A stretch of DNA of 64,000 bases, taken from contig CAVQJC010000017.1 in NCBI GenBank assembly GCA_963712745.1, positions 32,001 to 96,000 of the forward strand. Reading direction: 5' to 3'. Shown here in pieces: positions 3,758 through 57,050 of this stretch. Each line of letters opens with the position of its first letter. Position 1 is the first letter of the stretch. The translations under genes and the position numbers were made by a program. This DNA is from an uncultured Chloroflexia bacterium. Its GTDB lineage: Bacteria > Chloroflexota > Limnocylindria > Limnocylindrales > CSP1-4. The notes beneath the pieces were generated by a model. The model was given only the letters and a program-made list of their open reading frames with translations, had not been told where the DNA came from and ran no database searches.

Positions 3758-4297
3758 ATGCGCATGATCCGACACCTCGCGACCGGCGTCGCGACCCTGG
3801 CCATCGTCGCCATCTCGTTCGCTCCGGTCTCGGCCCAGTCGGCCGAGCTCTCGCTCGACCCGACCCAGCCCGCCCCGTTCACCGGCCGCATCGCGTACGG
3901 CGGCCAGGTGCGCTCGGGGACCATGGACACGGTCGACGGGCACATCGAGTCGCGCGGCTCGGCCTTCGCGCCGAGCATGGTCTCCGTGAGCGACCCGCGC
4001 CTCGACGGCGACGTCCTCATCAGCTGGCAGACCGACGAGTACGTCGCCTCCGATGGCGCGGATCAGGTCCTCGGCAGCGGCACCTGGCGCATCGAGACCG
4101 CCGACGGCGCATGGGAGGGGTCCTACGTCCGGCTCGAGGCCGATGGTCTCTCGGACAAGAGCACCGCGGTCCTGACCGGTCAGGGCGCATACGAGGGGCT
4201 CACCGCCGTCTGGGAGCAGACCATCGACGGCTCGGGATGGGACATCGCCGGAGCCATCTTCCCGTCCGGTCCCCCTCCGGCCGCTGTGCTGCCGTAG
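3758..4297 (+). CDS. Secreted hypothetical protein (DPRLDG...GAYEGLTA domain)
   Basis: AAGGAG RBS, signal peptide; shares motifs with 36234..37067 and 33480..33780. Confidence 0.75.
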   Translation: MRMIRHLATGVATLAIVAISFAPVSAQSAELSLDPTQPAPFTGRIAYGGQVRSGTMDTVDGHIESRGSAFAPSMVSVSDPRLDGDVLISWQTDEYVASDGADQVLGSGTWRIETADGAWEGSYVRLEADGLSDKSTAVLTGQGAYEGLTAVWEQTIDGSGWDIAGAIFPSGPPPAAVLP

Positions 4298-4535
4298 CGG
4301 CGTCACCCGCCACGACAGCGACCGACAGACTGTCGTCGGTCGCTGTCTCGCTCCCCAGCCAGTACGCGGCCTGCGCCGCGTTCACACAGCCGGTCCGCCG
4401 GTACAGCCCCGACAGATGCTGGCGCACCGTCGTCTCGCTGATACCCAACTCATACGCGGCCGCCGCTATCGAGCCCGCCGCGATGTAGGCGCGCAGGACC
4501 TCCAGTTGGCGCCGCGTCGGCCGCTGCCTCGCCAT
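4200..4535 (-). CDS. Stand-alone LuxR-type HTH protein (3' end probably eroded)
   Basis: PTRRQLEVLRAY...AAAYELGISETTVRQHLSGLYRRTG; the frame runs into the convergent gene. Confidence 0.7.
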   Translation of the reverse strand: MARQRPTRRQLEVLRAYIAAGSIAAAAYELGISETTVRQHLSGLYRRTGCVNAAQAAYWLGSETATDDSLSVAVVAGDAATAAQRPEGDRTGRWLRRCPIPSRRWSAPRRR

Positions 4536-4752
4536 CAGCCGGCCTTCCGGTAGGCATCGGCCCACGATCTCGCCGCCGGAGCCGCGTTCTCGAGCACGAA
4601 TCGGGGCCGGAACCGCAGGTGGGCCAAGCTGGCGCGACCCTTCTCGCCCCGACCACCTTTCGGGCTTGGTCCGCTCGTCCCATCACGCAGCTGCCAGGCG
4701 GACCGCGAGTCCACGACAGGGTCGGGTCATCGGGCTCGCCGGACCCAGGGCG

Positions 4753-5007
4753 TCAGTAGTGGTAGCGCGCCTGGAGGATCACCAGGTCATCGCCGTCGAT
4801 CAGATACACCAGCCGATGCTCGTCGGTGATGCGCCGAGACCATGCCCCCGACAGCAGGTGTCGCAACGGTTCCGGCTTGCCGATACCGGAGGTCGGGTCG
4901 CGCAGGGCCGCTTCGATCAGCCGGTTAACCCGCTTGAGCATCGCGCGGTCGGTCTCGACCCAGAACGAGTAGTCCTCCCACCCGTGGGGCGTGAAGACCA
5001 GCTTCAA
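4753..5007 (-). CDS. yoeB: Txe/YoeB family toxin
   Basis: GIGKPEPLRHLLSGAWSRRITDEHRLVY...ARYHY. Confidence 0.95.
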   Translation of the reverse strand: MKLVFTPHGWEDYSFWVETDRAMLKRVNRLIEAALRDPTSGIGKPEPLRHLLSGAWSRRITDEHRLVYLIDGDDLVILQARYHY

Positions 5008-5249
5008 CGATCGAGCTCGTGTTCATCCCGCCGGCCGGAGAGTGCCTGCTGCAGGCTCTCGAGTAGACGCCTCGCGTTCGCCGGCGCTCGAAGCAGGTGC
5101 GCCGTCGCCTCCAGTGAGTCGTAGTCCGCGCGCGAGATGAGGACGGCATCGCCCCGACGGGAGGTGATCTCCACCGGTGTCCGGTCCTCGTTGACCTGCT
5201 CGATCAGCGGGAACAGGTTCTTGCGTGCCTCAGACGCGGTGATGGCCAT
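5004..5249 (-). CDS. yefM: Phd/YefM family antitoxin
   Basis: MAITASEARKNLFPLIEQV...SLEATAHLLRAPANARRLLES; overlaps yoeB. Confidence 0.95.
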   Translation of the reverse strand: MAITASEARKNLFPLIEQVNEDRTPVEITSRRGDAVLISRADYDSLEATAHLLRAPANARRLLESLQQALSGRRDEHELDR

Positions 5250-5266
5250 GGGTCCCTCCTCCGTGT

Positions 5267-5288
5267 GTGGTACGAGATATGGTACCAC
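5267..5288. promoter_or_regulatory. Probable YefM operator
   Basis: Inverted repeat GTGGTAC-N8-GTACCAC with GTAC cores 12 bp apart, just upstream of yefM. Confidence 0.65.
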
Positions 5289-5406
5289 CTTGCGCCCGGC
5301 GAATCGGAGAGCAACGAAGAGCGACCAGTTCCGCGGACCGGGCCACGGACGATACTTGCAGACGCCAGTTCGCGGCTACCGAGCTGTTCGACCTTTCCAG
5401 GAAGCC

Positions 5407-5571
5407 ATGCGCGCTCTCGGGCGCGAGGTCCGCACGCTCGATGAGTGGCTGTACCAGCGCGTCGACGCCTACCCCGGCTGGGAAGGCACCCGTGATGTCG
5501 GTGCCGGCGTCGACATGACGGGCTGGCTCGACGAGATCGAGCGGTTCCTCGACGGGCAGGACGAGACGTAG
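5407..5571 (+). CDS. Small hypothetical protein, probably a 5'-truncated phage-type gene
   Basis: First of three tightly coupled small ORFs. Confidence 0.4.
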   Translation: MRALGREVRTLDEWLYQRVDAYPGWEGTRDVGAGVDMTGWLDEIERFLDGQDET

Positions 5572-5573
5572 CC

Positions 5574-5807
5574 ATGCGCCGCGACACCGCCTACCTCCGG
5601 AGCCACGGCCACGACCCCCGAGGTCCTGGTGCCGACGAGCGGATGCACGACCGGCTGCGAGCCCGACAGCGCGACATCGCCGAGGCCCGGGCCATGTGGG
5701 CCGAAGGCCACTCGCTCTACGCCATCCATCTTGCGACGGGCCGCTCGAAGGAGTGGCTGCGCACCTACGCCGGCATCCGCGACCAGCACGAAGGAGACCA
5801 CCGATGA
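5574..5807 (+). CDS. Small hypothetical phage-type protein, possible HTH
   Basis: 77 aa; GHSLYAIHLATGRSKEWLR; ATGA-coupled to the next gene. Confidence 0.5.
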   Translation: MRRDTAYLRSHGHDPRGPGADERMHDRLRARQRDIAEARAMWAEGHSLYAIHLATGRSKEWLRTYAGIRDQHEGDHR

Positions 5808-5995
5808 CCACGAAGAAGGCCACCACCGAGCTGCGCCGCTGCGCGGGCAGCGCCCGCTTCGGCATCGAGCGGCACGAGGCGCCGATCGGCGAGCTCCCCA
5901 AGCAGCCGAGCCGCAAGGACGGCCTGGGCACGATGTGCACCGAGCACTGGCAGGCCTACGTGAAGGTGCTGCGGGAGGCGCGGAAGGGGGCGATG
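5804..5995 (+). pseudogene. Small phage-type protein family C, copy 1 (stop codon lost)
   Basis: MTTKKATTELRRCAGSARFGIERHEA...PKQPSRKDGLGTMCTEHW; close homolog of 27122..27325. Confidence 0.7.
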
Positions 5996-6053
5996 GCGGC
6001 CGACGGATCGGAGTCCGACGCCGCGTGGCGGGGTACTCGCGCCGCTCACCAAC

Positions 6054-6085: not shown

Positions 6086-6120
6086 GTGCCTTCGCCACCG
6101 GTGCCAGCACGACGGGCAGC

Positions 6121-6156
6121 GCGCCACGTGGGCGCCCCGTCGCGCCCGTGGGCGAG
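6121..6156 (+). repeat. 36-bp dispersed repeat E, copy 1
   Basis: 33 of 36 bases match 34224..34259. Confidence 0.75.
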
Positions 6157-6159
6157 CAT

Positions 6160-6205
6160 GGCGCCCATCCGTGCAGGCCCGGCGCCCATCCGTGCAGGCC
6201 CGGCG
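6160..6205 (+). repeat. 21-bp tandem duplication
   Basis: GGCGCCCATCCGTGCAGGCCC x2 plus GGCG. Confidence 0.9.
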
Positions 6206-6222
6206 TCCGGCGCTCGATGTTG

Positions 6223-6350
6223 GAGCGGCAGCGCTCGCCGCAGACGATGGCCTGGCGAGGCCGGGCGTCGAGCGAGTCTTCGCAGCCCGGGCAGACGCGT
6301 CCGCTGGGCCGGCGACGGATGGCGGCGCGGTGCGGCTGCCCCTGGACACG
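6223..6350 (-). pseudogene. Zn-finger phage-type gene fragment
   Basis: RVCPGCEDSLDARPRQAIVCGERCRS, homologous to 54413..54889. Confidence 0.75.
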
Positions 6351-6393: not shown

Positions 6394-6837
6394 TCAGGCT
6401 TGCGTCGGGACGTCGGCCTCGGCGAGGGCCTTGAAGCTCCCCCAGATCCGCTGCTGGTTCTTCTCCATGCCGCCCGAGGACACCAGGTCCTTGAGGAAGC
6501 CGGGCATCCTGCCCGGGATCTCGTAGTCGGAGTCGAAAAGGAACGTGGTCGCCTCGCCGGCGGGTTCGAACCGGTGGGTGTTGTCCATCGGGCCGTAGTC
6601 GCTACGCATCCGGATGAGCCGCTGCGGCTCGACCTCGACGACCTCGACGGCCCACTTCGTCTCGAAGCCCATGACCTTCATGCTGTGTTCCAGCGTCGTG
6701 CCGACCTCGTCCAGCGGCCCGTTGAAGGTGGTCTTGCGATCCGACATCCAGTCTGGCCAGCGGGACGTGTCGAGGAAGAACGCCCAGACGTGCTCGACCG
6801 GCGCCTCGATGCGGACCTCGTGATGGAAGTGCTTCAT
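6394..6837 (-). CDS. SRPBCC family protein
   Basis: IEAPVEHVWAFFLDTSRWPDW. Confidence 0.85.
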   Translation of the reverse strand: MKHFHHEVRIEAPVEHVWAFFLDTSRWPDWMSDRKTTFNGPLDEVGTTLEHSMKVMGFETKWAVEVVEVEPQRLIRMRSDYGPMDNTHRFEPAGEATTFLFDSDYEIPGRMPGFLKDLVSSGGMEKNQQRIWGSFKALAEADVPTQA

Positions 6838-7006
6838 GACCTACCCCCGTCTGTGCGGGCCGGTTTCACTGGTGGCTCGGCGCGACCTGGCTGGTCGCGA
6901 CGGTCCAGGCGGCCGGTGCTGGGGCCGCGCGTCGAAGCCTCCCGCTAGGGGTGATTCTCGCGCGGGTGTCCATGAACGCTGCGCGAACGTCCGGTTCGGG
7001 AAGGAT

Positions 7007-8201: not shown

Positions 8202-8381
8202 GGCGATGCCTCCTGGCGGTCGGCCGACGCGACGGTTCTGACACGGCTCTGGTATGGAGTCCCATTCGACCGCCCACGCGATGCTCCGACATGACCGAGC
8301 CGATGGCAAGAGTCGTTCGGCTCCGGCTCTCACCAGTCGGACGCGCTTCGAGGCATCACCCCGAATCGCCATGAGTAGGCG

Positions 8382-8462
8382 GATGGGTCTCGGCACGATG
8401 TGCACCGAGCATTGGCGCGCCTTCGTCAGGGCGCTGCGCGAGGCGCGGAAGGCGGCGAAGGC
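8382..8462 (+). pseudogene. Family C small gene, 3' fragment (copy 2)
   Basis: GLGTMCTEHWRAFVRALREARKA. Confidence 0.75.
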
Positions 8463-8709
8463 AGGTGAAACGCGGCCACTGCCGGCGGCGGACCGGAGGC
8501 TGACGCCGCGTAGAGGGCCCGCTCGTGTTTGACAGGGGCCCAGGGCGTGTGCCCGGGACCCCTCTCAGTCTTCGGCCTTCTCGTCGTGTCCGCGACCCGT
8601 TCGCGAGCGCCGGGCGGCTCGAAGTCGGACCTCCGTCACCTGGTCACTGCGCTTGATGACCGACGCCAGCCACGAGCCACGCCTCCCGGATCGGCCCACG
8701 GCGCCACGG

Positions 8710-9371: not shown

Positions 9372-9463
9372 GGCGTGACCAGAATGGCGAAACTCGGCCG
9401 CGCGCGTGAGTGCCTACGGGGTCCCCGGGCGCCCATGTCAGCGCCCTGTGGGTAGCCCGGGTC
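9372..9463 (+). repeat. cos-like dispersed repeat A, copy 1
   Basis: GACCAGAAT..CGAAACTCGGCCGCGCG..TACGGGGTCCCCGGGCGCCCATGTCAGCGCCCTGTGGGTA; the repeat is seen directly, the cos function is inferred. Confidence 0.85.
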
Positions 9464-10530
9464 CGCCATCCGAGCCATCGGAGCCCGCCGTGTTGCCCCC
9501 GCTGCCGCCCGAGCCGATGACGATGGCGTAGTCGCCGCTGAGAGCGCCGGCCGCGAGCACCTTGCGCGCGTAGCCGCCCCCACCGCCACCACCGGCACAG
9601 GAGGCCTCGTTGGTCCCGGTGTCGTCACCGCCACCCCCACCGCCCCCGCCGCCGACGACCTCCACGACGATGTGGCTGAAGGCGTCATCGGTGGGCTTGG
9701 ACCACGTGTCGTCCGAGGTGTAGACATGGACGACCGGCGGGGTCGGGGTGTCACCGCTCAGCAGGATGCGCTTGCGTGGGACCGAGGTGTCGATGCCCAG
9801 CCACAGCGCCTGCACCACACCTGCGCCATCGACCTCGCAGACGAGCAGGCGGGCGTCGGGGTTCGACGCGATGAGCTCCGCCGCCGGCAGGTACAGCGAG
9901 CCGCCGAGCAGGTCGACCTTGTCACTGAGCCCGTCGTTGCCCGGCACGAGCGTGCCGTCGGGCTCGACCCGCCAGGCCTCGGACATGTCAGCCGCGCCGT
10001 CGTTCACCGAGAGCACGAGCGCGGTCGGCATGTCACCAGCTCCGGGGCTGCCGTCGACCTCCGCGTGGATGGCCGCGCCGTCGACCTGCGTCGCGCCATC
10101 GCGCCCGGTGAAGAGGACGCGCCCCAGCGTGTCCCCGTCCTGCACGGCCGCGTCCGCCGCGCGCAGACGGCTCAGCGTCTCCTGCGGGAAGCCCGCATCG
10201 GCCCGGACCACCTGCTCGACATGGTTGGCGTAGACGACGTCGAATGGGGTCGCCCAGGCGCCGAGCGCGTGCGTGTCAGGGGTGTCCGGCTCGAGGTCGC
10301 CGGCGAGGTCCCGACTGCCGTCGGCGCGCAGGTACTGGCTGTGGTCGTCATCGGCAAGACCGGAGAGGGCACCATGGTCGCTCGAGCCACCAGGTGGGGT
10401 GGCGAAGGCCCCGTCCCCGCGCAGGAACTCGGCGGTGCTGCCCGAGAGCTTCCGCAGCAGGCCGTGCCGGCTGGTGCTGGCATCGAGCTCGGTCGTGTCG
10501 TCGGGTGCCGCCAGGTCGTCGAGCTTGACC
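9438..10530 (-). pseudogene. Phage tail-fibre-like protein fragment, truncated at both ends
   Basis: Open frame with no start codon: KLDDLAAPDD..DHGALSGLADDDHSQYL..VEVVGGGGGGGGG..GGGGGGGYARK; fused into repeat A. Confidence 0.75.
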
Positions 10531-17734: not shown

Positions 17735-17738
17735 GGCC

Positions 17739-29330: not shown

Positions 29331-29417
29331 GCGCCGCCAAGGCACGGACGAGCGCCCGTACCGACCCATCGGTGCGGGCGCATCGCCTAGGTCTGTCGCT
29401 CGCCGTCCGCTTCGCAC

Positions 29418-29546
29418 GGCGTGACCAGAATCGCGAAACTCGGCCGCGCGTGCAGCACGCTACGGGGTCCCCCGGCGCCCATGTCAGCGCCCTGTGGGTA
29501 CCCCTGGGTCAGCGCCCGGGTCGACGCCGGGCTCAGCGCCGCCGCG
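29418..29546 (+). repeat. cos-like repeat A, copy 2
   Basis: Matches copy 1; boxes at 29484, 29509, 29521 and 29533; the last is CTCAGCGCCGCCGC, identical to the HNH gene 3' end. Confidence 0.85.
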
Positions 29547-29594
29547 AGCACGGCTCGGCGGGTGATCGTACGGACAGAGGAGGAGGAGTAGCCG

Positions 29595-32788: not shown

Positions 32789-33200
32789 CGAGGGCGGTTT
32801 CGCCGGTCCGAGGGGACATGACGGCCGTGACACCGCTGCCTCTACTGGATCTCCGGGCCGCCGTAGGAAGTGGAAGCTCCCCCCGGGCTTGCAGCAACGT
32901 GGAAGAAGAAGGTCTTCGGCGGAGCGTCCCCCGGGACGACTTGACCCGGGGGACGAGCTACAAGGCTTGACCTTCCCCTGCATCTCGGTGAAGACCTCGT
33001 TCATGCGTGCTTGGCTTCGGCGTCGTGGCGGAGGTGTTCGCCCGCCAGCTGGGCCTCGACCCCGGTCGACGTCGAGCTGGCTTCGGGAGCGGCTGGCTAG
33101 GAGGATGGTGTGAAATAGCCCGTCCACGCGCTTGCGCTACCGGCTGCAAGCGTCGAGTACCCCCGCGCAAGGCCCGTAGCTGCGTGGTCACCCTCGAAGT

Positions 33201-33241
33201 GGTCCGTGGCGCCCATCTCAACGCCCTGTGATGCCCCCGCC
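33201..33241 (+). repeat. cos-like repeat A, degenerate partial copy abutting HNH
   Basis: GGTCCGTGGCGCCCATCTCAACGCCCTGTG versus GGTCCCCGGGCGCCCATGTCAGCGCCCTGTG. Confidence 0.65.
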
Positions 33242-33480
33242 TCAGCGCCGCCGCTGGCTCAACCCCTTGCGCGCGTTGCAGCTCGGGCCGAGCACGCCGG
33301 GCTGGGTGGGCAGCGGCTCACCACCGAGGACGAGCGGCACCGGATGGTCGGCCGCGAGCTCGCCGGGCCGCACCGGATGGGGCGGGTGGTGCCGCCCGGG
33401 GACGTCCAGCCGTGGACCGCGACGTGCGCCTCGACCGTCCGCTTCGCAGGACGTCGCCAGGCGGACGTCCGTCGCACGGC
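33242..33480 (-). pseudogene. HNH endonuclease, copy 1 (frameshifted, 5'-truncated)
   Basis: WRRPAKRTVEAHVAVHGWT / ADHPVPLVLGGE..SCNARKGLSQRRR*. Confidence 0.8.
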
Positions 33481-33780
33481 ACCATCACCGGCTGCACCGT
33501 GGCTGCGCCCGGCACCACCACCCCCTGGGGTGACGGCCAGCAGATCCGCGACCGGGTCGAGGAGTGCACCTTCGTGGAGGGCCCGGAGTCGGGCTGGGCC
33601 TTCGGTGACCCGCGACTCGCGGGGACGAGCACGAACCGCATCGACATCGACATCACCTCCGGTATGGAGGGGATGTTCGATCTGCTCCATGCGCCCTGGG
33701 CCGTGCGCTGGGGGACCATGGAGATCGCAGGGCCGGATGGGGCCTGGGTCGGTCCATGGGTCGCGCCGGTTCTTCCAAGA
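33480..33780 (+). pseudogene. Internal fragment of a DPRLxG-domain secreted protein
   Basis: FGDPRLAGT..WGTMEIAGPDGAWVG. Confidence 0.55.
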
Positions 33781-34201
33781 CAGCGACGGGGTGCGCGAGA
33801 TCATCGCCGCCAACGAGGGTGCCGTCGGCCCGGAGTTCCAGTTCATCCCTGCCGACTACACGGACCCCTTGCCGCTCGAAGCCGAGAGTTACGATCTGCT
33901 GCTGTCACTCTACGCCGGCCCGGTGTCGCGGTAGTGCACGGGTTATCTCCGCATCGGGGGGATGCTGCTGGCGAACCCCAGCCATGGCGACGTGGCCCTC
34001 GCGTCGGTCGATCCTCACTACGAGCTCACCGGCGTCATCAGTTACCTGCATGGTGGATACCGCTATACGAGCGGTGAGCTCGAGACCTACCTGGTCCCGA
34101 GGATGCTGGTCGAGGACATCGCCGAGCTGGTCGAACGCACGGGCCGTGGCATCGCGTACACGAGGTCCCCGTTCGCCTACCTCTTCCGTCGCGTGCGCTG
34201 A
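33770..34201 (+). pseudogene. SAM-dependent methyltransferase-like fragment with an in-frame stop
   Basis: ADYTDPLPLEAESYDLLLSLYAG..*..LRIGGMLLANPSHGD. Confidence 0.55.
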
Positions 34202-34223
34202 CCGAGCCACCCCGATGGACATC

Positions 34224-34309
34224 GCGCCACGCCGGCGCCCCGTCGCGCCCGTGCGCGAGGTGGGCATGTTGCGGTGCCAGCGACCTTCGGAGCAGCCCAG
34301 CCGCAAGGA
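34224..34309 (+). repeat. Repeat E copy 2 plus a 19-bp family C scrap
   Basis: 34224..34259 matches 6121..6156; 34291..34309 is identical to 27219..27237. Confidence 0.7.
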
Positions 34310-35425: not shown

Positions 35426-35580
35426 CGCGTGACCGAGTTTCGCCGATATTGACCAGAATCGGGAATTCTCGGCCGCGTGCGTAACACGCTACGGGGTCCC
35501 CGGGCGCCCACGTCAGCGCCATGTGGGTACCCTGGGTCAGCGCCCATTGCGAAGCCCAGGCCAGCGCCCGCGTCAGCGCC
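35426..35580 (+). repeat. cos-like repeat A, copy 3, with an extra inverted half-site
   Basis: Core at 35450..35545; boxes at 35513, 35537, 35561 and 35573; 35426..35444 is an inverted copy of the GGCGAAACTCGG(C/T)C arm. Confidence 0.85.
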
Positions 35581-35605
35581 AGCCGGGTTGTCGACGAAAT
35601 CGGAA

Positions 35606-37138: not shown

Positions 37139-37219
37139 TTCCCTGCCTGACGTGATTCCGAGGAGGCTCGGCGCTCCACCGGGGCTCCACCGTAGACGAG
37201 CCACATGAGTTCCTTCGCC

Positions 37220-37510
37220 TCAGCGCCGCCGCTGGCTCAACCCCTTCCGCGCGTTGCAGCTCGAGCAGAGCACGCCCGGCCGAGCCGGCAGCGGCTCGCC
37301 ACCGAGGACGAGCGGCAGCGGATGGTCGGCCGTGGGCTCGCCGGGTCGCACCGGATGGGGCTCCCGATGCCAGCCAGGACAGGTCCAGCCCTCGCGCGCG
37401 ACATGAGCCTCGACCGTCCGCTTCGCCAGACGACGCCAAGCTCTCGTGCGTCGGATCGGATGGTCGGGTGTCCGCCGGAAGCGGTTGGCGAAGCCCGGCA
37501 CCCGGACTCC
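37220..37510 (-). pseudogene. HNH endonuclease, copy 2 (5'-truncated)
   Basis: PGFANRFRRTPDHP..GWTCPGWH..ADHPLPLVLGGE..LCSSCNARKG. Confidence 0.85.
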
Positions 37511-40742: not shown

Positions 40743-40861
40743 TCCTCCGCCGATGGCAGGCCTTGGGGCCGTGACGATCCGGAACCGGCTCGCCCGGGTC
40801 GACCTCGTGTCGGCTCGGGCATTGCCGCTCGAGCGTGTGGAGGCACGAGGCCATCACGTCA

Positions 40862-41210
40862 TCATCGCCGCGTTTGACTCGGCCCCTTGCGGGCGTTGCA
40901 GCTCGCGCAGGGCACGCCGGGTCTCGCCGACAGCGGCTCGCCACCGAGGGCCAGCGGCACCGGATGGTCGGCGGCCAGCTCGCCCTGTCGCACCGCGTGG
41001 GACTCGCGATGCCAGCCCGGACACGTCCAGCCGTGGACTGCGACATGCGCTTCGACCGTCCGCCTCGCCAGCCGGCGCCAGACGCTGGTGCGTCGCACCG
41101 GATGGTCGGGCGTCCGCCGGAAGCGGTTGGCCAAGCCGGGTCGACCGCAGCGCCGTGGCCCCACAGGCTCGGCGTTGACCTGGCCCGGCCGCAGGTCCAA
41201 CATGGCCCGA
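40862..41210 (-). pseudogene. HNH endonuclease, copy 3 (near complete; N-terminal PCWTCGR out of frame)
   Basis: RCGRPGLANRF..ADHPVPLALGGE..CASCNARKG. Confidence 0.85.
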
Positions 41211-41250
41211 TTCCACTGTCAGGATCGCTTTGGAGGAGCGCCCGAGATCG

Positions 41251-41934: not shown

Positions 41935-41975
41935 CGACGCCCGATCCGCTCGCCGTCATTGCGTTCGCCTTCGCC

Positions 41976-42175
41976 TCACCGTCGCCGCTGACTCAGGCCC
42001 TTGCGCGTGTTGCAGCTCGGGCAGAGCACTCCGGGCCGTGCGGACAACGGCTCACCACCGAGGACGAGCGGCACCGGATGGTCGGGCATGCACCGGAAGC
42101 GGTTGGCGAAGCCGGGTCGACCGCAGCGGTCGCAGCGACGCTCGTTCGTCGTGGGCCAGCCGCACGTGCATCGTC
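41976..42175 (-). pseudogene. HNH endonuclease, copy 4 (internal deletion)
   Basis: CTCGWPTTNERRCDRCGRPGFANRFRCMPDHP|VPLVLGGE..CPSCNTRKG. Confidence 0.85.
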
Positions 42176-42194
42176 CGGTGGTCGCGGGCCTGCC

Positions 42195-42620: not shown

Positions 42621-43188
42621 CGCTCCCTCGCTCTCTCCGCACTCGCCCCCTGGTTGCCCGGCCTGGTACTCCGGTCGCCCCATTGTCGGTTCGAAAGTCA
42701 ACAGGAAAGTGCTGCTGGGTCCCGAACCACACGATGATCGAGGCCTGCACCGGTTCGGCCATCGCGCTCGAGGACCCGGGGCCTACCCCGCCAGCCCCTC
42801 ATGGGCTCCCAAAGCATGTGCACTAGCGCTGCGCTACACCCCGACGATTGCGTGCGTCACTAGGGCACACAGCGCACTTCGATCGCGACACCGCGGGGCC
42901 TACAGCGCTGGTTGGTGCACATGATCGCCCCCGAGCAGCGCGCTCACGAACGCTGCCGCGATGTCCTATGCCACGGCCCGCAGAATACGTTCGCGTCATG
43001 CCGGCCATCCGGGAATGCGACGAGTAGCTCGTCCTTGAGCATTCGAGCGCACGCTCCCCGCTGCTGAATGCGGTCTGCATATCGTTGATCCCGATCGTTC
43101 GCAGCAGCGGGCATCCAAGCCTTCGGCGGATTCGAGGGGCAAGTGGTCGTTTCGGACGTCGCGCAGAACCGTGCCCAATGCCGAGTCA

Positions 43189-46994: not shown

Positions 46995-47020
46995 TCCTTA
47001 CCTTGACCGCACAGTAAGGA
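46995..47020. promoter_or_regulatory. Probable AbrB-type antitoxin operator
   Basis: TCCTTAC-N12-GTAAGGA. Confidence 0.6.
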
Positions 47021-47026
47021 GAACGG

Positions 47027-47278
47027 ATGATGGAAGTCACCGCACGGCTCAGCTCCAAAGGCCAGGTCACGGTCCCCCGCGCGGTCCGCGACGCGCTCTC
47101 CCTGGAGGAAGGGGACCGCCTCGTGTTCCGGGTGGAAGGCGACCATGCCGTCCTGGCCCGGACGCCGGACCTCTTGGCGCTCGCAGGATCGGTGAGCGTG
47201 CCGGCCGCGAAGCGGGGCACGCCCTGGGATGAGGTGCTGCGGCAGACGCGCCGAGCTCGCGCAGCCGGGCGACGGTGA
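47027..47278 (+). CDS. AbrB/MazE/SpoVT antitoxin
   Basis: LSSKGQVTVPRAVRDALSLEEGD. Confidence 0.92.
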   Translation: MMEVTARLSSKGQVTVPRAVRDALSLEEGDRLVFRVEGDHAVLARTPDLLALAGSVSVPAAKRGTPWDEVLRQTRRARAAGRR

Positions 47279-47670
47279 CCGCCTTCGTCGATGCCAACAT
47301 CCTCATCCGCCACCTGACCGGGGACCCACCCGAGCAGGCTGCGCGCGCGACGCGCTACCTGCGTGCCGCCGACGAGCTGCTGCTGCCCGATCTCATCCTC
47401 GCCGAGGTCGCCTACGTCCTGGAGTCGTTCTACGAGACGCCGCGGGCGCAGGTGGCAGCCACGCTCCGAGCGGTGCTGGCGTTCCCGGCCATCCGGGTCA
47501 TCGATCGGGATCTCCTGCAGCGTGCCATCGAGGTCTATGACCTCCTCCGACTCGACTTCGCGGATGCCTATCTCGTCGCGAGCGCCGAACGGACGGGGAT
47601 CGGAGTCGTCGCCTCGTTCGATCGTGGCATCGATCGCGCCGTCACCGTCCGCCGCGAGGAGCCCGGCTGA
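47275..47670 (+). CDS. vapC: PIN domain toxin
   Basis: FVDANIL, LAEV, DFADAY, SFD. Confidence 0.92.
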   Translation: MTAFVDANILIRHLTGDPPEQAARATRYLRAADELLLPDLILAEVAYVLESFYETPRAQVAATLRAVLAFPAIRVIDRDLLQRAIEVYDLLRLDFADAYLVASAERTGIGVVASFDRGIDRAVTVRREEPG

Positions 47671-47689: not shown

Positions 47690-47740
47690 GAGCCAGAGCC
47701 CGCCAAGGGATCGAGCACCGCCTCACCCGGCAGGGTCGCG
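47690..47740 (-). pseudogene. DNA methyltransferase motif I scrap
   Basis: ATLPGEAVLDPLAGSG; 23 bp identical to 56941..56963. Confidence 0.6.
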
Positions 47741-48253: not shown

Positions 48254-48345
48254 GTCGCGGCTGCCGTCGAAGGCCATACACTCCGCGTTGGCGGAGAAGG
48301 TGGACATGTGAAGTGGACATGTCCACCAGCGGGTCCCCACGACCC

Positions 48346-49104: not shown

Positions 49105-49386
49105 CTACACAACCGGCAGGACCGTCGAGCATGGCGGGCCCCGACCCACGCGCCCGAGCCGCTCTTCGTCCTCGGAGAGGTCGACGTACAGGACGGGGAC
49201 CAATGGTTCGCCGCGGCTGATCGCGAGGGCCACCCTGAGGTGGCCGTCGACGACGTGCCCGGTGCGCTGGTTGACGAGCACGTTCTGGACCCAGCCGACC
49301 TGGTCAAGGACCCCGGCCAGTGCCTCCTGCTGGGCCTTCGGATGGACGCGGCAGTTGGCCGGGCTGGCGAGCAGCCGGTCGGGCAA
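49105..49386 (-). pseudogene. ParB/Srx-like N-terminal domain of a phage ParB-methylase, fragment
   Basis: PANCRVHPKAQ..VGWVQNVLVNQRTGHVVDGHLRV..VDLSEDEE. Confidence 0.8.
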
Positions 49387-51849: not shown

Positions 51850-52450
51850 CCGCCGTGGCAGGGTTTCACCTTCTGGCCGCTGCCGCACGGTCAGAGGTCA
51901 TTGCGCCCGGCCGACGCGACGGCCAGGCCGAGGTCCGCGTCGAACTGCGCCAGCATGAGCATCACCTCGGAGGCCTGGCGGCCGGCCTTGAGCAGCCCCA
52001 CGATGGCCTTCGCGGGGCGCTCGATGTGGCGGAGGAATGCCATGCAGCCCGCGCACAGGTAGTTGAGGCCGGGCTCGCCGTCTCGGGTCACCAGGAAGCG
52101 GTTCTTCGGGCATTCGCCGTGGCAGGCGAAGCCGACATCGTACTCGCGGCACATGCGGGGCAAGGTGTCGCGCTTGGCCGCCCCGAACGACTGTTGCTGA
52201 TCCGAGCCGACCAGGTCGAGCATCGGCAGCTCCCGGATGTTGCCCAGCCGATGCTCGGGCTCGACGAGGTGATCGCAGGAGTACAGGTCGCCGATGTGCT
52301 CGAGGCAGGCCCGCGCCACAGGTGGCGTCGAAGACGCAGAGTCCCGAGCCGGGGGCCCCGTAGAAGTTGCGCAGCGTGGCCTCGAACGTCTGGACGAAGA
52401 CCCGGCCGACGTCGTTGCGGACCCAGTCGACGAAGATGGTGCTGAGGAAG
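51850..52450 (-). pseudogene. Anaerobic sulfatase maturase (SPASM + SEC-C) 3' fragment
   Basis: WVRNDVGRVFVQTFE, GDLYSCDH, CHGECPKNRF, LNYLCAG, GRNDL*PCGSG. Confidence 0.85.
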
Positions 52451-52530
52451 CGCATGAAGCGCGAGAAGTAGGGCACGACGAGGACATCGCAGTCCTTGCC
52501 GGCTCGTTCGAGCAGGTCGCTGAAGTGCCG
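52451..52530 (-). pseudogene. Serine recombinase catalytic-domain scrap
   Basis: RHFSDLLERAGKDCDVLVVPYFSRFMR resembles the resolvase D-V-L-V-V...SRF.R motif. Confidence 0.5.
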
Positions 52531-52667
52531 AGGCCAGGCAGCAGCCGAGGCGGACGTCAAACGACGACCTCTCGCCCACGGACGAACCGAGAGCAGCAGA
52601 TGCCGACGGCGTCGTCGCTGACCGTGACCAGTTGGAGCGGGGACTCCGGCGCTTGTCGATGCCTGGG

Positions 52668-53966: not shown

Positions 53967-54510
53967 ATGACAGGGGGAGTGTCTTCGATGACTCGACATC
54001 GGGTGGGTGCTCCGTCGAAGCACCATGCTGGCCGCCTGGCCACCGTCATGGTCTTCGTGGCCGCGATCGTGGCGAGCCCTGGAGCGCTGGCTCAGTCACC
54101 CTCGCCATCCCTCGCGCCTGCGGCGAGCGCCTCCCCGGCCACGACATTCGACGTCTTCGCCGGCAGCCCCACCACGACCGTCTCGCTCGGGCTCTACTCC
54201 GGCTTGCCCGACCCGTCCTGGGAGCTGTCCGACGAGGAAGCGTCGGCCCTCACCGCGCTCCTCGAGTCGCTGCCCCGCGTGGACGGCCCAGCGCCATCGG
54301 GTGGTCTCGGCTATCACGGCTTCACGATCGAGCGGCTGACGCCCGAGGGCATGCCGCGCCTGCTGCTGGCGTTCGAGGGTACGGTCTCCGACCCGCTCTC
54401 GAGCCATCTCTCCTACCTCGATGATCCCGGACGGTCGGTCGAGCGTTTCCTCCTCGACAGCGGGCGCGACTGGCTGTCGGCCGTCGAGATCGATGGCGCC
54501 CGGACTCGAT
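53967..54510 (+). pseudogene. Secreted hypothetical protein, 3' end lost at the Zn-finger relic
   Basis: Signal peptide; YSGLPDPSWEL..GLGYHGF..VERFLLDSG, then non-coding-like read-through. Confidence 0.55.
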
Positions 54511-54889
54511 CCCGGGCCGACGTCGTCTGCGGGTTCGTAGCCGGCGGCGAGGCAGCGCTGACTCGCTGGGTCGCCCGGAACCGCGGGAGACCTGGGCCGG
54601 ACCGCGCCCGCCAGCGTCTCGTCCGCGAGCGGCAGCGCTCGCCGCACACGATGGCCTGCCGACGCCGGCCGTCGAGCGGGACGCCGCAGCCCGGGCAGAC
54701 GCGTCCGGCGGGCCGGCGGCCGATGGCGCTGCGGTGGGCCTCGCACCAGACCCGGGGGCGGCCACGGCCGGGTCGGGCCTCGAGCTCGGCACCGCACGCG
54801 CGGCAACGGCGCCGTGGCGTGACCAGTGCCCGCAGCTGCGCCGTGCCCATCCGGGCCAGGGCCTCGAGCTCATCCATCACGATCATCAT
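54413..54889 (-). CDS. Phage-type double Zn-finger protein immediately downstream of the cos-like site
   Basis: CRACG..GRPRVWCEAH and CPGCG..AIVCGERC. Confidence 0.7.
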   Translation of the reverse strand: MMIVMDELEALARMGTAQLRALVTPRRRCRACGAELEARPGRGRPRVWCEAHRSAIGRRPAGRVCPGCGVPLDGRRRQAIVCGERCRSRTRRWRARSGPGLPRFRATQRVSAASPPATNPQTTSARDRVRAPSISTADSQSRPLSRRKRSTDRPGSSR

Positions 54890-54931
54890 CCCATCGGGCG
54901 ACCGGGTGTCCGCATCAATACGGCGTAATCA

Positions 54932-55041
54932 GGCGAAACTCGGCCGCGCGTGCACCACGCTCCGGGGTCCCCCGGGCGCCCACGTCAGCGCCATGTGGGT
55001 ACCGGTGGTCCACCGCCCGGCCCAACGCCACGCCCAACGCC
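54932..55041 (+). repeat. cos-like repeat A, copy 4
   Basis: Core at 54932..55003; boxes at 54985, 55010, 55022 and 55034. Confidence 0.85.
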
Positions 55042-55186
55042 CCGTCCTGGCCTGCCTGGGGAGCGCGCAACGGGGCTTCGTTGTAGTAGTCTCCCGCTCT
55101 GTCTAGACCGACCCAGCAGGGTCGTCGCGCAGCTCGACGGCGCCGCATCCCGTTGGCGCCGCAGGACGGGGGGATAGGAGGAAGCG

Positions 55187-55837
55187 TTGTCCCGTTCCCG
55201 CACCCTGGCCCTCGTCGGCGCAGCCGCCCTGCTGCTCGTGTCCGCCGCGCCCATCGTGGCCCAGGACGAGGCCACCACCGATGACAGCATGGACATGGAG
55301 GGCCTGACCCTCGATGTCGGCGGCGTCGAGTACGCCTTCACGAACCTACCGACGAGCGTGCCCGCGGGCACGTCCCTGACCTTCACCAACAACGGTGCCG
55401 AGGTCCACGAGATGGTCGTCGTGCGCATCGCTGACGGCGTCACCGAGAGCCTCGAGGAGATCCTGGCCATGGAGGCCGAGGGTCGTGACCCGATGGCCGA
55501 GGGCCTGGTCGAGATCGTGGGGGACATGCCGCTCTTCGCGGCACCGGGGACCACCGCCGAGGGCACCCGGACGCTCGAGAGCGAGGGACGCTACGTCGTC
55601 CTCTGCTTCATCCCCCAGGGCCTCACGGACATGTCGGTCCTCGAGCAGCTCGGTCCAGACGCGAACCCCGAGGATATGCCGCCCGAGGTCCAGGCGATCA
55701 TGGCCAACCCGCCGCACCTGGCGCTGGGCATGATCCAGGAGTTCACCGTCACCCCGGCGGGGACCGAGGTCGGCCCGCTGCCGGAGGCTGCTTCCGACGG
55801 GATGGCACCCGAGGACGAGGAGGCGGCGTCGAAGTAG
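55187..55837 (+). CDS. Secreted cupredoxin-like protein with an expanded Cys-His loop
   Basis: Signal peptide; EYAF, NNGAEVHEM, YVVLCFIP...HLALGM. Confidence 0.82.
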   Translation: MSRSRTLALVGAAALLLVSAAPIVAQDEATTDDSMDMEGLTLDVGGVEYAFTNLPTSVPAGTSLTFTNNGAEVHEMVVVRIADGVTESLEEILAMEAEGRDPMAEGLVEIVGDMPLFAAPGTTAEGTRTLESEGRYVVLCFIPQGLTDMSVLEQLGPDANPEDMPPEVQAIMANPPHLALGMIQEFTVTPAGTEVGPLPEAASDGMAPEDEEAASK

Positions 55838-55843
55838 TCGCCG

Positions 55844-56062
55844 ATCACCACGGATACGCTGGAGCGCTCGCTGGAGAAAGTCCGCAGACGGACCAAGGTC
55901 ATCGGCCAGTTCCCCGGTGAGAGCAGTCGCCTGACGATGGCCTGGGCCGTCATGGACCTCGTCATCGCCGGCGCCAAGGGACTCGGGCTGACCATGCCGG
56001 AGCGCCATGCCATCGCTGTCATCGTCGCTGACCGGGCAGCCCCGAGCGTCGGTCTTCCCTGA
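55844..56062 (+). mobile_element. IS256-family transposase C-terminal remnant
   Basis: TTDTLERSLEKVRRRTKVIGQFPGESS matches the IS256 TTN.LER...RRRTKV.G.FP motif. Confidence 0.8.
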
Positions 56063-56095
56063 TGTGGACACACTGGCGTGCTATTGTGTGCACAT
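56062..56095. promoter_or_regulatory. Probable antitoxin operator
   Basis: ATGTGGACACA-N12-TGTGTGCACAT inverted repeat overlapping the start codon. Confidence 0.6.
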
Positions 56096-56354
56096 GGCTG
56101 AGGTCGGGATCCGCGAACTGAAGCAGCGTCTGTCCGAGTACCTGGACCGAGCAGAGCGAGGTGAAGTCGTGCAGGTCACCCACCGTGGCCGCCCAAAGGC
56201 GATGCTCGGTCCGGTGCCTGGCCGCGCGCGCGTCGAGGAGGGTATCCGCAGTGGATGGATCACCCCGGGTACCGGCTCGCCGCTTGGTCCTGTGCATCGA
56301 GCGAAGGCGTCCAGGCGCGTGCTCGACGTGCTGGCCGGGGATCGCGGTGAGTGA
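56094..56354 (+). CDS. Phd/YefM-type (VapB) antitoxin
   Basis: MAEVGIRELKQRLSEYLDRAERGEVVQVTHRGRP. Confidence 0.92.
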   Translation: MAEVGIRELKQRLSEYLDRAERGEVVQVTHRGRPKAMLGPVPGRARVEEGIRSGWITPGTGSPLGPVHRAKASRRVLDVLAGDRGE

Positions 56355-56755
56355 GTACCTACGTCGATTCGAGCGCCTTGCTCAAGCGCTACGTGGACGA
56401 GGCCGACTCGGCCGACGCTGATGCCCTGCTGCAGGCCGACGGTGCGCTCCTGACGGCCCGACACACGATCGTGGAGGTGCGCCGCAACCTCGCTCGCCTG
56501 CTCTCCGGGCGCGATCTCGTCGCCGCGCGAGCCGCATTCGCGGACGACCTGCGCTCCATCTCGATCATCGAGCTCGACGAGGCGACCTGCGATTCGGCTG
56601 CGTTGATCGCGGAGTCCACCGGCGCGCGCACGCTCGATGCGCTCCATCTCGCGGCCGCACAACGGGTCTCCGCGCCAGGGGTCGGCTTCCTGACGTTCGA
56701 CCTTCGCCAGGCACAGGCAGCCCGCGCGATCGGTCTCACCGTCGTGACCGCCTGA
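56351..56755 (+). CDS. vapC: PIN domain toxin
   Basis: YVDSSALLKRY, VEV, RTLDALHLAAA, TFD. Confidence 0.93.
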   Translation: MSTYVDSSALLKRYVDEADSADADALLQADGALLTARHTIVEVRRNLARLLSGRDLVAARAAFADDLRSISIIELDEATCDSAALIAESTGARTLDALHLAAAQRVSAPGVGFLTFDLRQAQAARAIGLTVVTA

Positions 56756-56924
56756 TCGGACACGCAGGTGGCGTGATCGGGTCGGGACCCGCAGGCACCG
56801 TGGGCCAACGATGGCGGGGCAGGGGCTCGAGACCGTCGAGGTGGCTCGGGCGGGTCTCGTCGCGACACAGCTTCGCGGCGTCGGGCGCACGGGCCGTCCC
56901 CGCCGATCCGCGCGGCGCTTCCCG

Positions 56925-57050
56925 CCCCGAGCCTGCGAAAGGATCGAGCACCGCCTCACCCGGGAGCGAGCTGTAGCCTCGGACCAGCCGGGGGCATCGG
57001 CTTCCGGCGTCGGGTGGATGGTCACCGGCTTCACTCGCGGCAGCTCGACC
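56925..57050 (-). pseudogene. N4/N6 DNA methyltransferase C-terminal fragment
   Basis: ELPRVKPVTIHPT, frameshift, then YSSLPGEAVLDPFAGSG. Confidence 0.7.

Follow-up and report, generated by a model that had tools for sequence, protein, structure and literature searches.

In Prochlorococcus, according to the description of its tycheposons and PICI-like elements, tRNA-linked islands arise from successive integrations that push older elements inward, with partial tRNA copies, fragmented integrases and degraded elements remaining, an adaptive and variable cargo and a minority of elements using a large serine recombinase (10.1101/2020.12.28.424599). The window studied here, i.e., a 64,000-nt stretch of contig C17 from an uncultured Chloroflexia bacterium (genome G000), resembles these islands in its putative insertion at a tRNA site with outward push, its partial tRNA and degraded leftovers and its variable cargo. 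Unlike in the Prochlorococcus islands, its relics come from one HK97-like phage family of which the cos-proximal packaging module survives, the recombinase relic always belongs to the serine type and the host is of high GC. For helper-embedded and tandem PICIs of Enterobacteria, satellites and prophages in tandem at one att site have been described, as have packaging genes carried by the satellites, and tyrosine integrases, some of them directed at late genes of phages, among these the large terminase (codon 245) (PMC10111431). Elements in tandem at one att site carrying packaging genes would be the common trait, whereas, compared with those PICIs, the TerL gene breaks here at codon 211 and is followed by small ORFs and a toxin-antitoxin (TA) pair with no integrase, and the arrays yielded no replication module of a satellite.

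For the HK97-type cos packaging module, Kala et al. are said to have described in 2014 an HNH endonuclease beside P27-family TerS and TerL. In line with this, an HNH gene lies upstream of packaging genes here, with a Terminase_4 TerS, a TerL ATPase and a ParB-methylase nearby. In contrast, the window holds only scraps of such a module, a Zn-ribbon ORF and three antisense small genes stand between HNH and TerS, and a short repeat (repeat A) is only a candidate for the cos site. Chromosomal integrons and superintegrons, finally, are long accessory-gene arrays punctuated by related repeats and interspersed with TA modules. Related repeats and TA modules also characterize the accessory-gene array of the window, which, however, is devoid of IntI, attC-like hairpins and a common cassette orientation, its repeats being decayed phage genes.

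Scrap families and their polarity

As stated in the preliminary description, the scraps between the cargo genes belong to a few families, each keeping one orientation, and all 19 protein-level scraps on C17 are co-oriented (Table 1). Across ten arrays from eight genomes of the genus, one sense per array is followed by 164 of 166 protein-level scraps, all 32 copies of repeat A and all 30 HTH units. Self-BLAST of the window resulted in 24 repeat pairs, 23 of them direct, the sole inverted pair representing paralogous cargo genes (44027-44175 and 55311-55459). This polarisation is limited to the scraps, as the cargo comprises 27 plus- and 26 minus-strand genes according to our own gene caller. 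Rather than being spread evenly through the genome, the scraps are clustered, with 19 on C17:2.7-88.9 kb and 7 on C20:30.9-42.9 kb; outside these clusters, single HTH units near contig ends and one recombinase relic occur.

Most of the family assignments made beforehand could be substantiated. The four HNH scraps (starting at 33238, 37216, 40858 and 41972, minus strand) are 68-74% identical to a phage HNH, with a weak Pfam HNH match in three of the four (E 7e-4 to 7e-3). The alleged Zn-finger scraps are minus-strand pieces of a Zn-ribbon ORF (Z), the ParB scrap is an N-terminal domain (PHROG E 1e-13), and both methylase scraps fall within the N6_N4_Mtase ORF of a better-kept copy, the second (56926-56975) being adjoined by a TerS N-terminus (56775-56909). 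The tail-fibre-like gene, with a homologue of the same sense in G024:C6, and plus-strand small genes at three places are likewise present. Repeat A occurs in four clear copies plus a degenerate fifth directly after the HNH stop (about 33.1-33.24 kb), all in the same orientation. Both reported junctions, HNH to repeat A (33.2 kb) and repeat A to Zn-finger (54.9 kb), exist, the former being common to G024:C6:100.7-100.9 kb. Two assignments had to be abandoned: the supposed recombinase at 52451 gave no Pfam or PHROG match, its neighbor (51891-52319) showing only a SPASM domain, and the small gene placed at 34291 turned out to be a non-coding scrap of 54-69 nt. ORFs 33791-33934 and 33962-34201 showed no relationship to the small-gene families. 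Besides, contig C5 bears a separate array of 21 repeats, each with half of tRNA-Pro(TGG).

A chimeric contig joined through repeats during metagenome assembly might be suspected from the 20-contig MAG (completeness 84.6%, contamination 5%), the HTH units at several contig ends and the odd placement of gene 62780-64153 relative to the array. Architecture and polarity, however, recur in seven other genomes, some of 3-10 contigs, the GC content is even, and short contigs from two other studies, possibly with the source sample among their runs, span the two HNH-cargo junctions around 41251-41934 with zero differences; such an artefact is hardly credible.

Table 1. Features of the window, with positions counted from its first nucleotide.
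Feature	Position	Strand	Remarks
LuxR/GerE-type HTH unit	4302..4655	-	about 140 nt upstream region plus codons 1-61 of 79-aa regulator; Pfam GerE E 1e-7
att core, 16-nt fragment of tRNA-Pro(CGG) 3' end	4640..4655	-	1 mismatch
YefM/YoeB TA pair	4753..5249	-	Pfam E 2e-37 and 5e-18; just upstream (module sense) of att core
Small antisense gene sm76	5792..6025	+	80% to C20 copy, 64% to phage L038 antisense ORF
Zn-ribbon ORF Z fragment (aa 45-91)	6103..6350	-	self-BLAST repeat pair
sm76 fragment	8374..8469	+	
Repeat A, copy 1	9372..9512	-	
Tail-fibre-like glycine-rich gene	9438..10211	-	PHROG tail fibre families, best E 9e-17
Small antisense genes sm61 (phrog_14596) and sm76	26756..27325	+	
Repeat A, copy 2	29416..29558	-	
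HNH scrap (aa 46-123, frameshifted), then degenerate repeat A	33080..33486	-	
Non-coding scrap of region downstream of sm76	34189..34259	+	
Repeat A, copy 3	35450..35587	-	
HNH scrap (aa 35-126)	37216..37498	-	dN/dS 0.18 versus full copies
HNH scrap (aa 31-126)	40858..41152	-	junction to next gene bridged by another run's contig
HNH scrap, internal in-frame deletion (aa ~18-49 joined to 91-126)	41972..42167	-	
tRNA-Pro(TGG) 5' half with its upstream region	42720..42909	-	separate repeat family; upstream of SRPBCC gene 42195-42620
MazE/PIN TA pair	47018..47670	+	
DNA methyltransferase fragment (C-terminal part)	47693..47733	-	repeat; partner copy maps into G056 PF01555 ORF
ParB-like N-terminal domain of ParB-methyltransferase (aa 43-118)	49156..49383	-	93% to G056 copy
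Zn-ribbon ORF Z, longest copy	54416..54886	-	
Repeat A, copy 4	54920..55059	-	31 nt upstream of Z start codon
Phd/PIN TA pair	56007..56755	+	
TerS N-terminus (aa 2-46), preceded by methyltransferase C-end fragment	56775..56975	-	TerS 62%, E 7.6e-10; rightmost scrap

A phage packaging module as source of the scraps

The scraps are collinear with the packaging end of the IMG/VR phage contig L038, showing the gene order HNH, antisense small genes, ParB-MTase, TerS, TerL and portal. In tblastn, its proteins match the window in the phage's order and relative strands, with identities of 62-74% (HNH), 63-64% (antisense ORF), 64% (ParB-MTase) and 62% (TerS). Since the scraps thus follow the gene order at the packaging end of an actual phage contig, their earlier reading as a phage-like packaging module is right. 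A better-kept module is found in G056:C5, encoding HNH_3, HNH, ParB-MTase (PF01555), Terminase_4 TerS and a TerL ATPase domain, and the full order is HNH, A, Zn-ribbon ORF, antisense small genes, ParB-methylase, TerS and TerL N-terminus, with TA pairs at the right end. When parsed by hand in this sense, taking in the 19 protein-level scraps, seven repeat A copies, methylase ends, TA pair and att cores, C17:1-89 kb resolves into 12 ascending runs with zero order violations. Phage origin, order and polarity of the scraps are therewith evident. Erosion acted from both sides, as the HNH gene is 5'-truncated at many positions and TerL is reduced to N-terminal pieces in 14 of the 16 genomes with a match, i.e., in all but G007, which has two full-length copies, and G008, whose broken pieces reach about aa 470; in G000, no TerL was found. 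TA modules belong to the units, and a YefM homologue occupies the position matching the window's YefM/YoeB pair in G056, G001 and G009.

A site-specific recombinase inserting single cargo cassettes at the HNH 3' end or repeat A, as in integrons, would account for the sharp left edge of the HNH scraps (0-6 nt past the stop codon in 29 of 29 aligned 3' ends), for the cassette-like HNH-cargo-HNH-cargo runs at 37-42 kb and for the last 20-70 nt of HNH preceding several A copies. This mechanism is highly improbable, however, as the best candidate for an integron integrase scored 84.9 bits against a cut-off of 265, a covariation-supported hairpin is absent from repeat A, and the HNH scraps, ranging from about 60 to 380 nt, define no fixed att length. 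Moreover, the HNH stop abuts A directly in G009 and at 33.2 kb, so that the sharp edge merely reflects the cargo start. The integron analogy drawn initially is loose, with cargo in both orientations, many genes having their own regulators and no attC-like repeat.

tRNA-Pro(CGG), the att core and the recombinase relic

The preliminary description envisaged an integron-like reservoir with no intI or attC. A lack of any recombinase and att site does not hold: every HTH unit begins with a 16-nt fragment of tRNA-Pro(CGG), and the tRNA is adjoined by the relic of a large serine recombinase, both lying mostly outside the window. The core is present in seven copies genome-wide, one within the real tRNA (C5:8950), while all six others (TGGTCGGGGCGAGAGG, at most one mismatch) stand at the head of an HTH unit. 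Such a unit marks the left end of a phage unit; among the 30 in the ten arrays, the end falls at query position 304-314 in 25 and the start at position 10 or below in 20, and the HTH gene shows a dN/dS of 0.09. An arm ending in ...GGTGGTCACACAGGTGGGTT precedes the core at the tRNA and at internal recombinase-HTH junctions alike (G024:C6 at 48.3 and 111.9 kb, G024:C8, G001 and C17:14.2 kb), as predicted for tandem insertions.

The recombinase relic, possessing Resolvase and Recombinase domains, abuts tRNA-Pro(CGG) in 9 of 11 genomes examined, including G000, where both reside on C5 and not on C17; the arrays of G001:C2 and G056:C5 end at this tRNA. The copies inspected in G000 and G053 are frameshifted, an intact one was not demonstrated, including those of G010 and G060, and an empty site was not seen, all 11 loci being occupied. 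It is likely this recombinase that made the insertions, and the window's array may well hang on tRNA-Pro(CGG). Against this, identity blocks of 16 nt are rather a feature of tyrosine integrases.

Divergence, cargo and origin of the array

In agreement with the view that the copies do not stem from a single recent duplication, the HNH tree has a star-like shape, in which copies from one array are not monophyletic. The HNH copies diverged under purifying selection, with a dN/dS of 0.14 over 45 pairs of full copies and of 0.18-0.26 for the truncated scraps of the window, both at a dS of about 0.5-0.6. Selection of this kind together with the lack of clustering by array indicates that the copies are separate arrivals, and repeated co-oriented insertion at one locus, as first suggested, is the best model. 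The span is probably part of a hypervariable island in which related HK97-like temperate phages or derived satellites inserted one after the other in a common orientation. These elements would carry the large serine recombinase and an attachment core copying the tRNA-Pro(CGG) 3' end, so that every arrival would regenerate the tRNA and push older units outward, its left end consisting of the 16-nt tRNA fragment followed by the LuxR-type HTH gene. Later deletions would strip structural and lytic genes, leaving cargo, for the most part immediately downstream of HNH and near repeat A, and short flanking packaging-proximal scraps.

Besides the recombinase copies, of which none was shown intact, the absence of an empty site and the 16-nt identity block, several observations are at odds with this insertion model. 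A physical link between the window and tRNA-Pro(CGG) is lacking, and the conserved gene 62780-64153, which in 6 of 11 loci of relatives is situated past the tRNA, at a distance of 7-9 kb and away from the array, is found in G000 at the opposite end of the array with no tRNA between. The HNH-only units at 33-42 kb require several very similar deletions or another process, and carriage by a phage is not obvious for large cargo, e.g., the 15-kb sugar and glycine-cleavage block at 10.5-24.7 kb. Furthermore, core and HTH are kept at only 2 of about 12 C17 unit boundaries, which would also suit an ancestral module amplified in place by segmental duplication and unequal crossing-over and then diverging, with cargo acquired later by unrelated routes. 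Tandem duplication likewise predicts co-orientation, and G056 contains a recent internal duplicate of 2.9 kb. Nevertheless, this scenario is quite doubtful, as neutral decay predicts a dN/dS near 1 for the truncated scraps, one array's copies are scattered in the HNH tree, and the internal recombinase-core-HTH junctions are attP-like, matching insertion.

Overlapping with phage insertion rather than excluding it, the units could be, or recently have been, mobilisable cos-type satellites, i.e., phage deletion derivatives of about 10 kb between two att cores (HTH, lysis-like genes, HNH, repeat A, ParB-methylase, TerS, 212-aa TerL ATPase fragment, TA pair), excised and packaged by a helper phage, with cargo-plus-scrap cassettes swapped between species via transduction and homologous recombination at the repeats. 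Corroborative of this, the junction of TerL(1-211), 65-aa ORF (stop/start overlap), YefM, 16 nt, core and HTH is conserved in G056, G001 and G009 (G000:C8 retaining just YefM-core-HTH), and G056 holds it twice, 99.2% identical over 2.9 kb, both TerL fragments being open 212-aa frames with a TerL_ATPase domain. Between species, this block shows a dS of 0.13-0.37 versus 0.5-0.73 for gyrA (dN/dS 0.06-0.24). In G056, a cargo gene is flanked on one side by a full HNH and on the other by a 70-nt duplicate of the HNH 3' end, an arrangement expected from a single crossover with a circle, and IMG/VR contig L037 unites HTH, HNH, sigma-factor cargo, integrase and primase. Conversely, a search of the ten arrays for a replication module, with the L037 primase as query, gave zero matches, no intact recombinase was demonstrated, no circular or excised form was seen (short contigs only), the TerL end at aa 211 could be a single old inherited deletion and G000 itself is without the fragment. 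Altogether, mobilisable satellites appear rather unlikely. Turnover of the cargo, in turn, speaks for successive phage insertions: of 53 genes called here, the glyoxalase gene 32015-32788 alone is closely matched in G024:C6 (dS 0.18 versus 0.73 for gyrA), the low dS of this cargo with its HNH-A junction also favoring satellites.

The evidence that the elements each arrived with cargo of their own is partial, and the scraps may persist through flanking cargo under selection. On the favored reading of successive phage insertions, about a dozen related viruses would have inserted one after another, a route to variable gene islands that is already known and unusually clear here.

Relics of one phage packaging module

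Self-comparison of the window gave 24 repeat pairs, 23 of them direct, with two paralogous cargo genes forming the sole inverted pair. The repeated scraps of phage genes between the cargo genes are real and keep one orientation, as the preliminary description had proposed, and its scrap families are borne out as well, namely HNH, repeat A, the Zn-ribbon ORF, small plus-strand genes, the ParB N-domain, two methylase ends and a tail-fibre-like gene. Three single assignments fared differently. A recombinase placed at 52451 finds no support, as the frames 51898–52560 and 52088–52579 show no Pfam or PHROG match, and the small gene assumed at 34291 is just a 54–69-nt scrap, the ORFs 33791–33934 and 33962–34201 not being small-gene homologues. 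Long frames over the methylase sites also gave no Pfam or PHROG match, and this label was saved solely by mapping onto the copy in the related genome G056. At gathering thresholds, Rfam models did not match any scrap, the riboswitch listed in the table being the only hit, and tRNA genes were not found in the window. A pattern scan of IMG/VR for the Zn-ribbon ORF yielded 124 fitting stretches, none of which was confirmed as a relative.

Features of the array and its surroundings (window positions; source-genome contigs are designated C)
Feature	Position	Strand	Remarks
HNH scraps, four copies		minus	3′ part of the gene for a 126-aa HNH endonuclease
Repeat A, four clear copies and a degenerate one	33.1–33.24 kb (degenerate copy)		degenerate copy directly past HNH stop
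Zn-ribbon ORF (Z)			start 31 nt downstream of repeat A
Small genes		plus
ParB N-domain
Two methylase ends
TerS N-terminus			not named in the preliminary description
Tail-fibre-like gene
LuxR-type HTH unit	4337–4655
tRNA-Pro(CGG) core	4640–4655
SRPBCC gene	6394–6837
c-di-GMP-II-GAG riboswitch	6849–6951	minus	47.5 bits (gathering score 40); upstream of the SRPBCC gene
Glyoxalase gene	32015–32788
Segment of about 150 nt	36436–36594		within gene 36234–37067; 79–90% like eight other loci (C20:651–660 kb, C17:15, 27 and 31 kb, C8, C1)
tRNA-Pro(TGG)-derived repeat	42720–42909		one member of the C5 repeat family
Short repeat	48200–48336		50–120 nt; about 13 copies, 84–94% identical, on C17:163–175 kb, C10, C8, C2 and C11
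NMT1-like binding-protein gene	50116–51500		99.4% identical to C8:87335–88719
Repeat A with 216-aa gene (55187–55837)	54921–55827		98% identical to C17:1699–2594, 85 kb off
Transposase-like match	55838–56059	plus	weak (E 0.0013), to the C-terminus of a Mutator-family transposase; between cargo gene and Phd/PIN pair
Conserved gene	62780–64153

The full-length HNH protein matched the IMG/VR phage contig L038 (13.8 kb, 68.8% G+C), on which tail genes are followed by HNH, small ORFs, an HNH homologue, two antisense small ORFs, a ParB-DNA methyltransferase, TerS, TerL, portal, scaffold and major head protein, and the proteins of which match the window in equal order and on equal relative strands. 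A better-kept version, found on contig C5 of G056, consists of an HNH_3 nuclease, two uncharacterised ORFs, HNH, repeat A, three antisense small genes, a ParB-MTase (PF01555), a Terminase_4 TerS and a 212-aa TerL ATPase fragment. Because of the agreement in order and strand with L038, the congener module and the layout of HK97-type cos phages, the earlier reading of the scraps as one phage-like packaging module is correct.

Both L038 and G056:C5 hold the HNH endonuclease together with a P27-family TerS and TerL; in the window, HNH and TerS are present as scraps only and TerL is absent. TerL matches occur in 16 of 48 other genomes and not in the source genome (G000), full-length only in G007 (two copies), as broken pieces up to about aa 470 in G008 and as N-terminal fragments in the other 14, ending at aa 211–212 in G056, G001 and G009. 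As TerL is kept in N-terminal pieces and HNH is cut from its 5′ side, there at many different positions, the relics are the stretches flanking the HNH–TerS gap on either side. Repeat A, sitting between HNH and the next ORF, bears several short palindromes and is a candidate cos site; as a structured RNA, it shows no covariation-supported fold (covariation term +1.11, with 1 of 19 pairs compensatory).

Of 24 further genomes sampled within the genus, 11 contain the HNH family, versus 0 of 16 of the sister genus. Across ten arrays in eight genomes, one sense per array is kept by 164 of 166 protein-level scraps and by all repeat A copies (32/32) and HTH units (30/30). In the source genome, the array continues past the left edge of the window to the contig start (C17:1–32 kb), and a second, inverted block lies at C20:31–43 kb. 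When parsed by hand in the module sense (HNH, repeat A, Z, antisense small genes, ParB-methylase, TerS, TerL), the scrap positions on C17 form 12 ascending runs with zero violations, which implies about 12 units or more over 89 kb. The HNH-only run at 33–42 kb fits poorly and calls for repeated similar deletions or homologous cassette exchange. Parts of 33000–42500 are contained in 20 sequencing runs; contigs from four of these measure only about 250–1150 nt, with 21–27 letters on the shorter side of the joints.

Cargo genes and comparison with integrons

Since plain ORF listing is of no use at this G+C content, genes of the G000 assembly (4.2 Mb, 20 contigs, 68% G+C, 84.6% complete), in which the window corresponds to C17:32001–96000, were called by codon log-odds, with the long ORFs of the genome as training set. 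With this caller, the coding share of the span 4200–57050 is 71% compared to 83% for the genome, and 53 genes are called in the span, 27 of them plus-strand and 26 minus-strand. The cargo comprises ordinary accessory functions, i.e., SRPBCC proteins, glyoxalases, sigma/anti-sigma pairs, a two-component system, a 15-kb sugar and glycine-cleavage block and three toxin-antitoxin (TA) pairs, with own regulators beside several genes. The collinear array on contig C6 of G024 offers a close counterpart for just one gene of the span, the glyoxalase, and the beta-galactosidase is matched in one of five relatives, weakly. Cargo is mainly positioned directly past the HNH stop and around repeat A; HNH abuts repeat A without cargo in between in G009 and at 33.2 kb, and in G056 a 265-aa gene separates the full HNH from a 70-nt duplicate of the HNH 3′ end. 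The scraps presumably persist due to flanking genes that are under selection.

Relatives of the riboswitch leader are found at C7:68–74 kb and C17:160–173 kb. The segment within gene 36234–37067 is probably the conserved domain of an anti-sigma-like paralogue family travelling with ECF sigma genes as cargo. Repeat A with the 216-aa gene represents the sole near-identical duplicate in the array. The similarity between the NMT1-like gene and its counterpart on C8 goes on downstream at 79%, and the pair reflects either a recent duplication or a two-strain assembly. A weak transposase match and a short dispersed repeat are listed in the table.

Likening the array to an integron, as had been suggested, is not tenable, as IntI, attC and a common cargo orientation are all missing. 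In the whole genome (84.6% complete), the IntI model (TIGR02249) reached no more than 84.9 bits, far below its cut-off of 265, with matches on C4 and at C17:376 kb. While attC inverted repeats are expected at the ends of integron cassettes, the repeats here are coding scraps and repeat A without a supported fold, and whereas integron cassettes are co-oriented from one promoter, both strands are used here almost equally and several genes have their own regulators.

Elsewhere in the genome, at C5:73679–110164 (loci L009–L011), 21 co-oriented repeats of about 190 nt were observed, a single member of which lies in the window. Each combines the 5′ half of tRNA-Pro(TGG) with the sequence upstream of it and shares a motif of about 17 nt at both ends. 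The series begins at the real tRNA-Pro(TGG), and its members, 0.9–3.8 kb apart, enclose about 19 cassettes of 1–4 genes, 23 of 28 genes being located downstream of a repeat on the same strand. Encoded are hydrolases, methyltransferases, beta-lactamase-fold proteins, an SDR, a Phd antitoxin and a PIN toxin, among others, and no recombinase was found in this array or within 3 kb around it. The tRNA-Pro(TGG) array looks far more cassette-like than the array of phage scraps.

The tRNA-Pro(CGG) core as candidate attachment site and the adjacent recombinase relic

The HTH unit is sharply delimited, with 25 of 30 copies ending at query position 304–314 and 20 of 30 starting at position 10 or before, and begins with 16 nt, TGGTCGGGGCGAGAGG, that correspond in reverse complement to the tRNA-Pro(CGG) 3′ end. 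Genome-wide, this core occurs seven times when allowing for one mismatch, once in the tRNA (C5:8950–9026) and six times at HTH unit starts. On C17, it is kept at two unit boundaries only, in the window and at C17:14238, and direct-orientation partial tRNA copies are present within the island; the single match in the window, taken alone, is not above chance (at least one match in 30 of 100 shuffles).

On C5 of the source genome, a frameshifted large serine recombinase gene adjoins tRNA-Pro(CGG), with the Recombinase domain recognizable in this genome and the Resolvase domain in relatives. The arm between recombinase and tRNA recurs within arrays, where it connects recombinase relics with HTH units, and this recombinase–arm–HTH junction is attP-like, as left by a second insertion at a regenerated tRNA. 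Of 11 genomes inspected at the tRNA-Pro(CGG) locus, nine have an adjacent recombinase relic, and the arm is the same in nine, diverged in G052 and different in G024; an empty site was found at none of these loci. The arrays G001:C2 and G056:C5 end at an intact tRNA-Pro(CGG), and the module sense points toward the tRNA in all five cases with both visible. A reading without recombinase and att site is not supported, given the core heading the HTH units and the relic at the tRNA, which together make a candidate site-specific integration system. An intact recombinase could not be demonstrated; the gene is frameshifted in G000 and G053, and a 547-aa frame in G010 and a 467-aa frame in G060 were found without Pfam domain. 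The relics beside the tRNA (e.g., L083:7300–8950) differ by 4–17 indels per pair despite high letter identity, which could be due to recent spread followed by fast inactivation or to consensus errors in a repeat-rich region.

The few kept cores on C17, the lack of a demonstrably intact recombinase and the indels of the relics fit poorly, as do two observations on location. The window is not linked to tRNA-Pro(CGG) in this assembly, the tRNA being located on C5, and the conserved gene, here at the far end of the array, is found in six relatives' loci 7–9 kb past the tRNA, on the side away from the array. An HTH unit beside tRNA-Gly on C11 was considered as the distal end of the array and dropped, as a 47-nt tRNA-Gly fragment 5.8 kb away assigns it to a separate islet. 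Both G000 (C11:52–103 and 5875–5950) and at least six relatives have such a 47-nt copy of the tRNA-Gly(TCC) 3′ part at 1.4–17 kb from the tRNA, marking a second family of tRNA-targeting islets, of which the one in G000 contains an HTH unit with the tRNA-Pro core.

Age of the copies and exchange between species

Full HNH copies show a dN/dS of 0.14 (45 pairs, dS 0.6) and HTH copies of 0.09. For the truncated HNH scraps of the window compared with full copies, values are 0.18–0.26, whereas about 0.6 would be expected for scraps without function ever since a duplication in the ancestor of the genus, so that divergence mostly took place while the genes were functional. In the HNH tree, built from 25 cellular and two phage copies, the branching is star-like and the members of an array do not cluster. 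Together with the low dN/dS and the attP-like internal junctions, this supports the proposed repeated insertion of related elements. As HNH dS resembles that of gyrA between species (0.5–0.73), the phage family is about as old as the genus, and recent between-species transfer of all scraps finds no support. Only some blocks are clearly younger than the species, namely the glyoxalase gene with its HNH–repeat A junction (dS 0.18), the TerS-to-YefM block (dS 0.13–0.37) and the tRNA-adjacent recombinase relics, which in seven species are 92–95.5% identical over 1.55–1.7 kb versus 84–88% for gyrA. These blocks fit a model with the newest unit beside the tRNA and also show that units, or cargo plus flanking scrap, are passed between species.

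A more far-reaching explanation, which we regard as improbable, is that the island, rather than being a graveyard, still serves phage-driven gene exchange, with cos-type mini-satellites that would leave it by excision at the tRNA-Pro cores and enter the capsids of helper phages. Every such satellite would comprise HNH, repeat A as cos site, TerS, a deliberately truncated TerL ATPase, ParB-methylase and a TA pair, and cargo cassettes would be shifted between species of the genus by helper capsids and homologous recombination, made possible by the many co-oriented copies of repeat A and the scraps. Low synonymous divergence of the glyoxalase/HNH–repeat A and TerS–YefM blocks relative to core genes is what such exchange would produce. 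A conserved unit of TerS, TerL(1–211), TA and core-HTH is seen, in no case with both cores intact. A satellite replication module gave no match in the ten arrays with the primase of the phage contig L037 as sole query, and the tyrosine integrase, excisionase and primase of L037 have no counterparts there. To our knowledge, no phage-satellite family has been described from this lineage, to which such satellites, if real, would add one.

Repeated insertion at a tRNA has parallels. Prochlorococcus tycheposons and PICI-like elements insert successively at tRNAs, leaving partial tRNAs and decayed integrases in the island (10.1101/2020.12.28.424599), and tandem PICIs as well as integrases targeting the large terminase gene have been described too (PMC10111431). 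The present array is a very clear example of this kind of island. The 16-nt tRNA core with HTH, the HNH 3′ end and repeat A provide a marker set for such islands in metagenome genomes. For this poorly studied, uncultured high-GC lineage, the origin of a large variable region can probably be traced to repeated hits of one phage family at one tRNA site, where selection would have kept phage-carried accessory genes beside the packaging site while the virus was lost.
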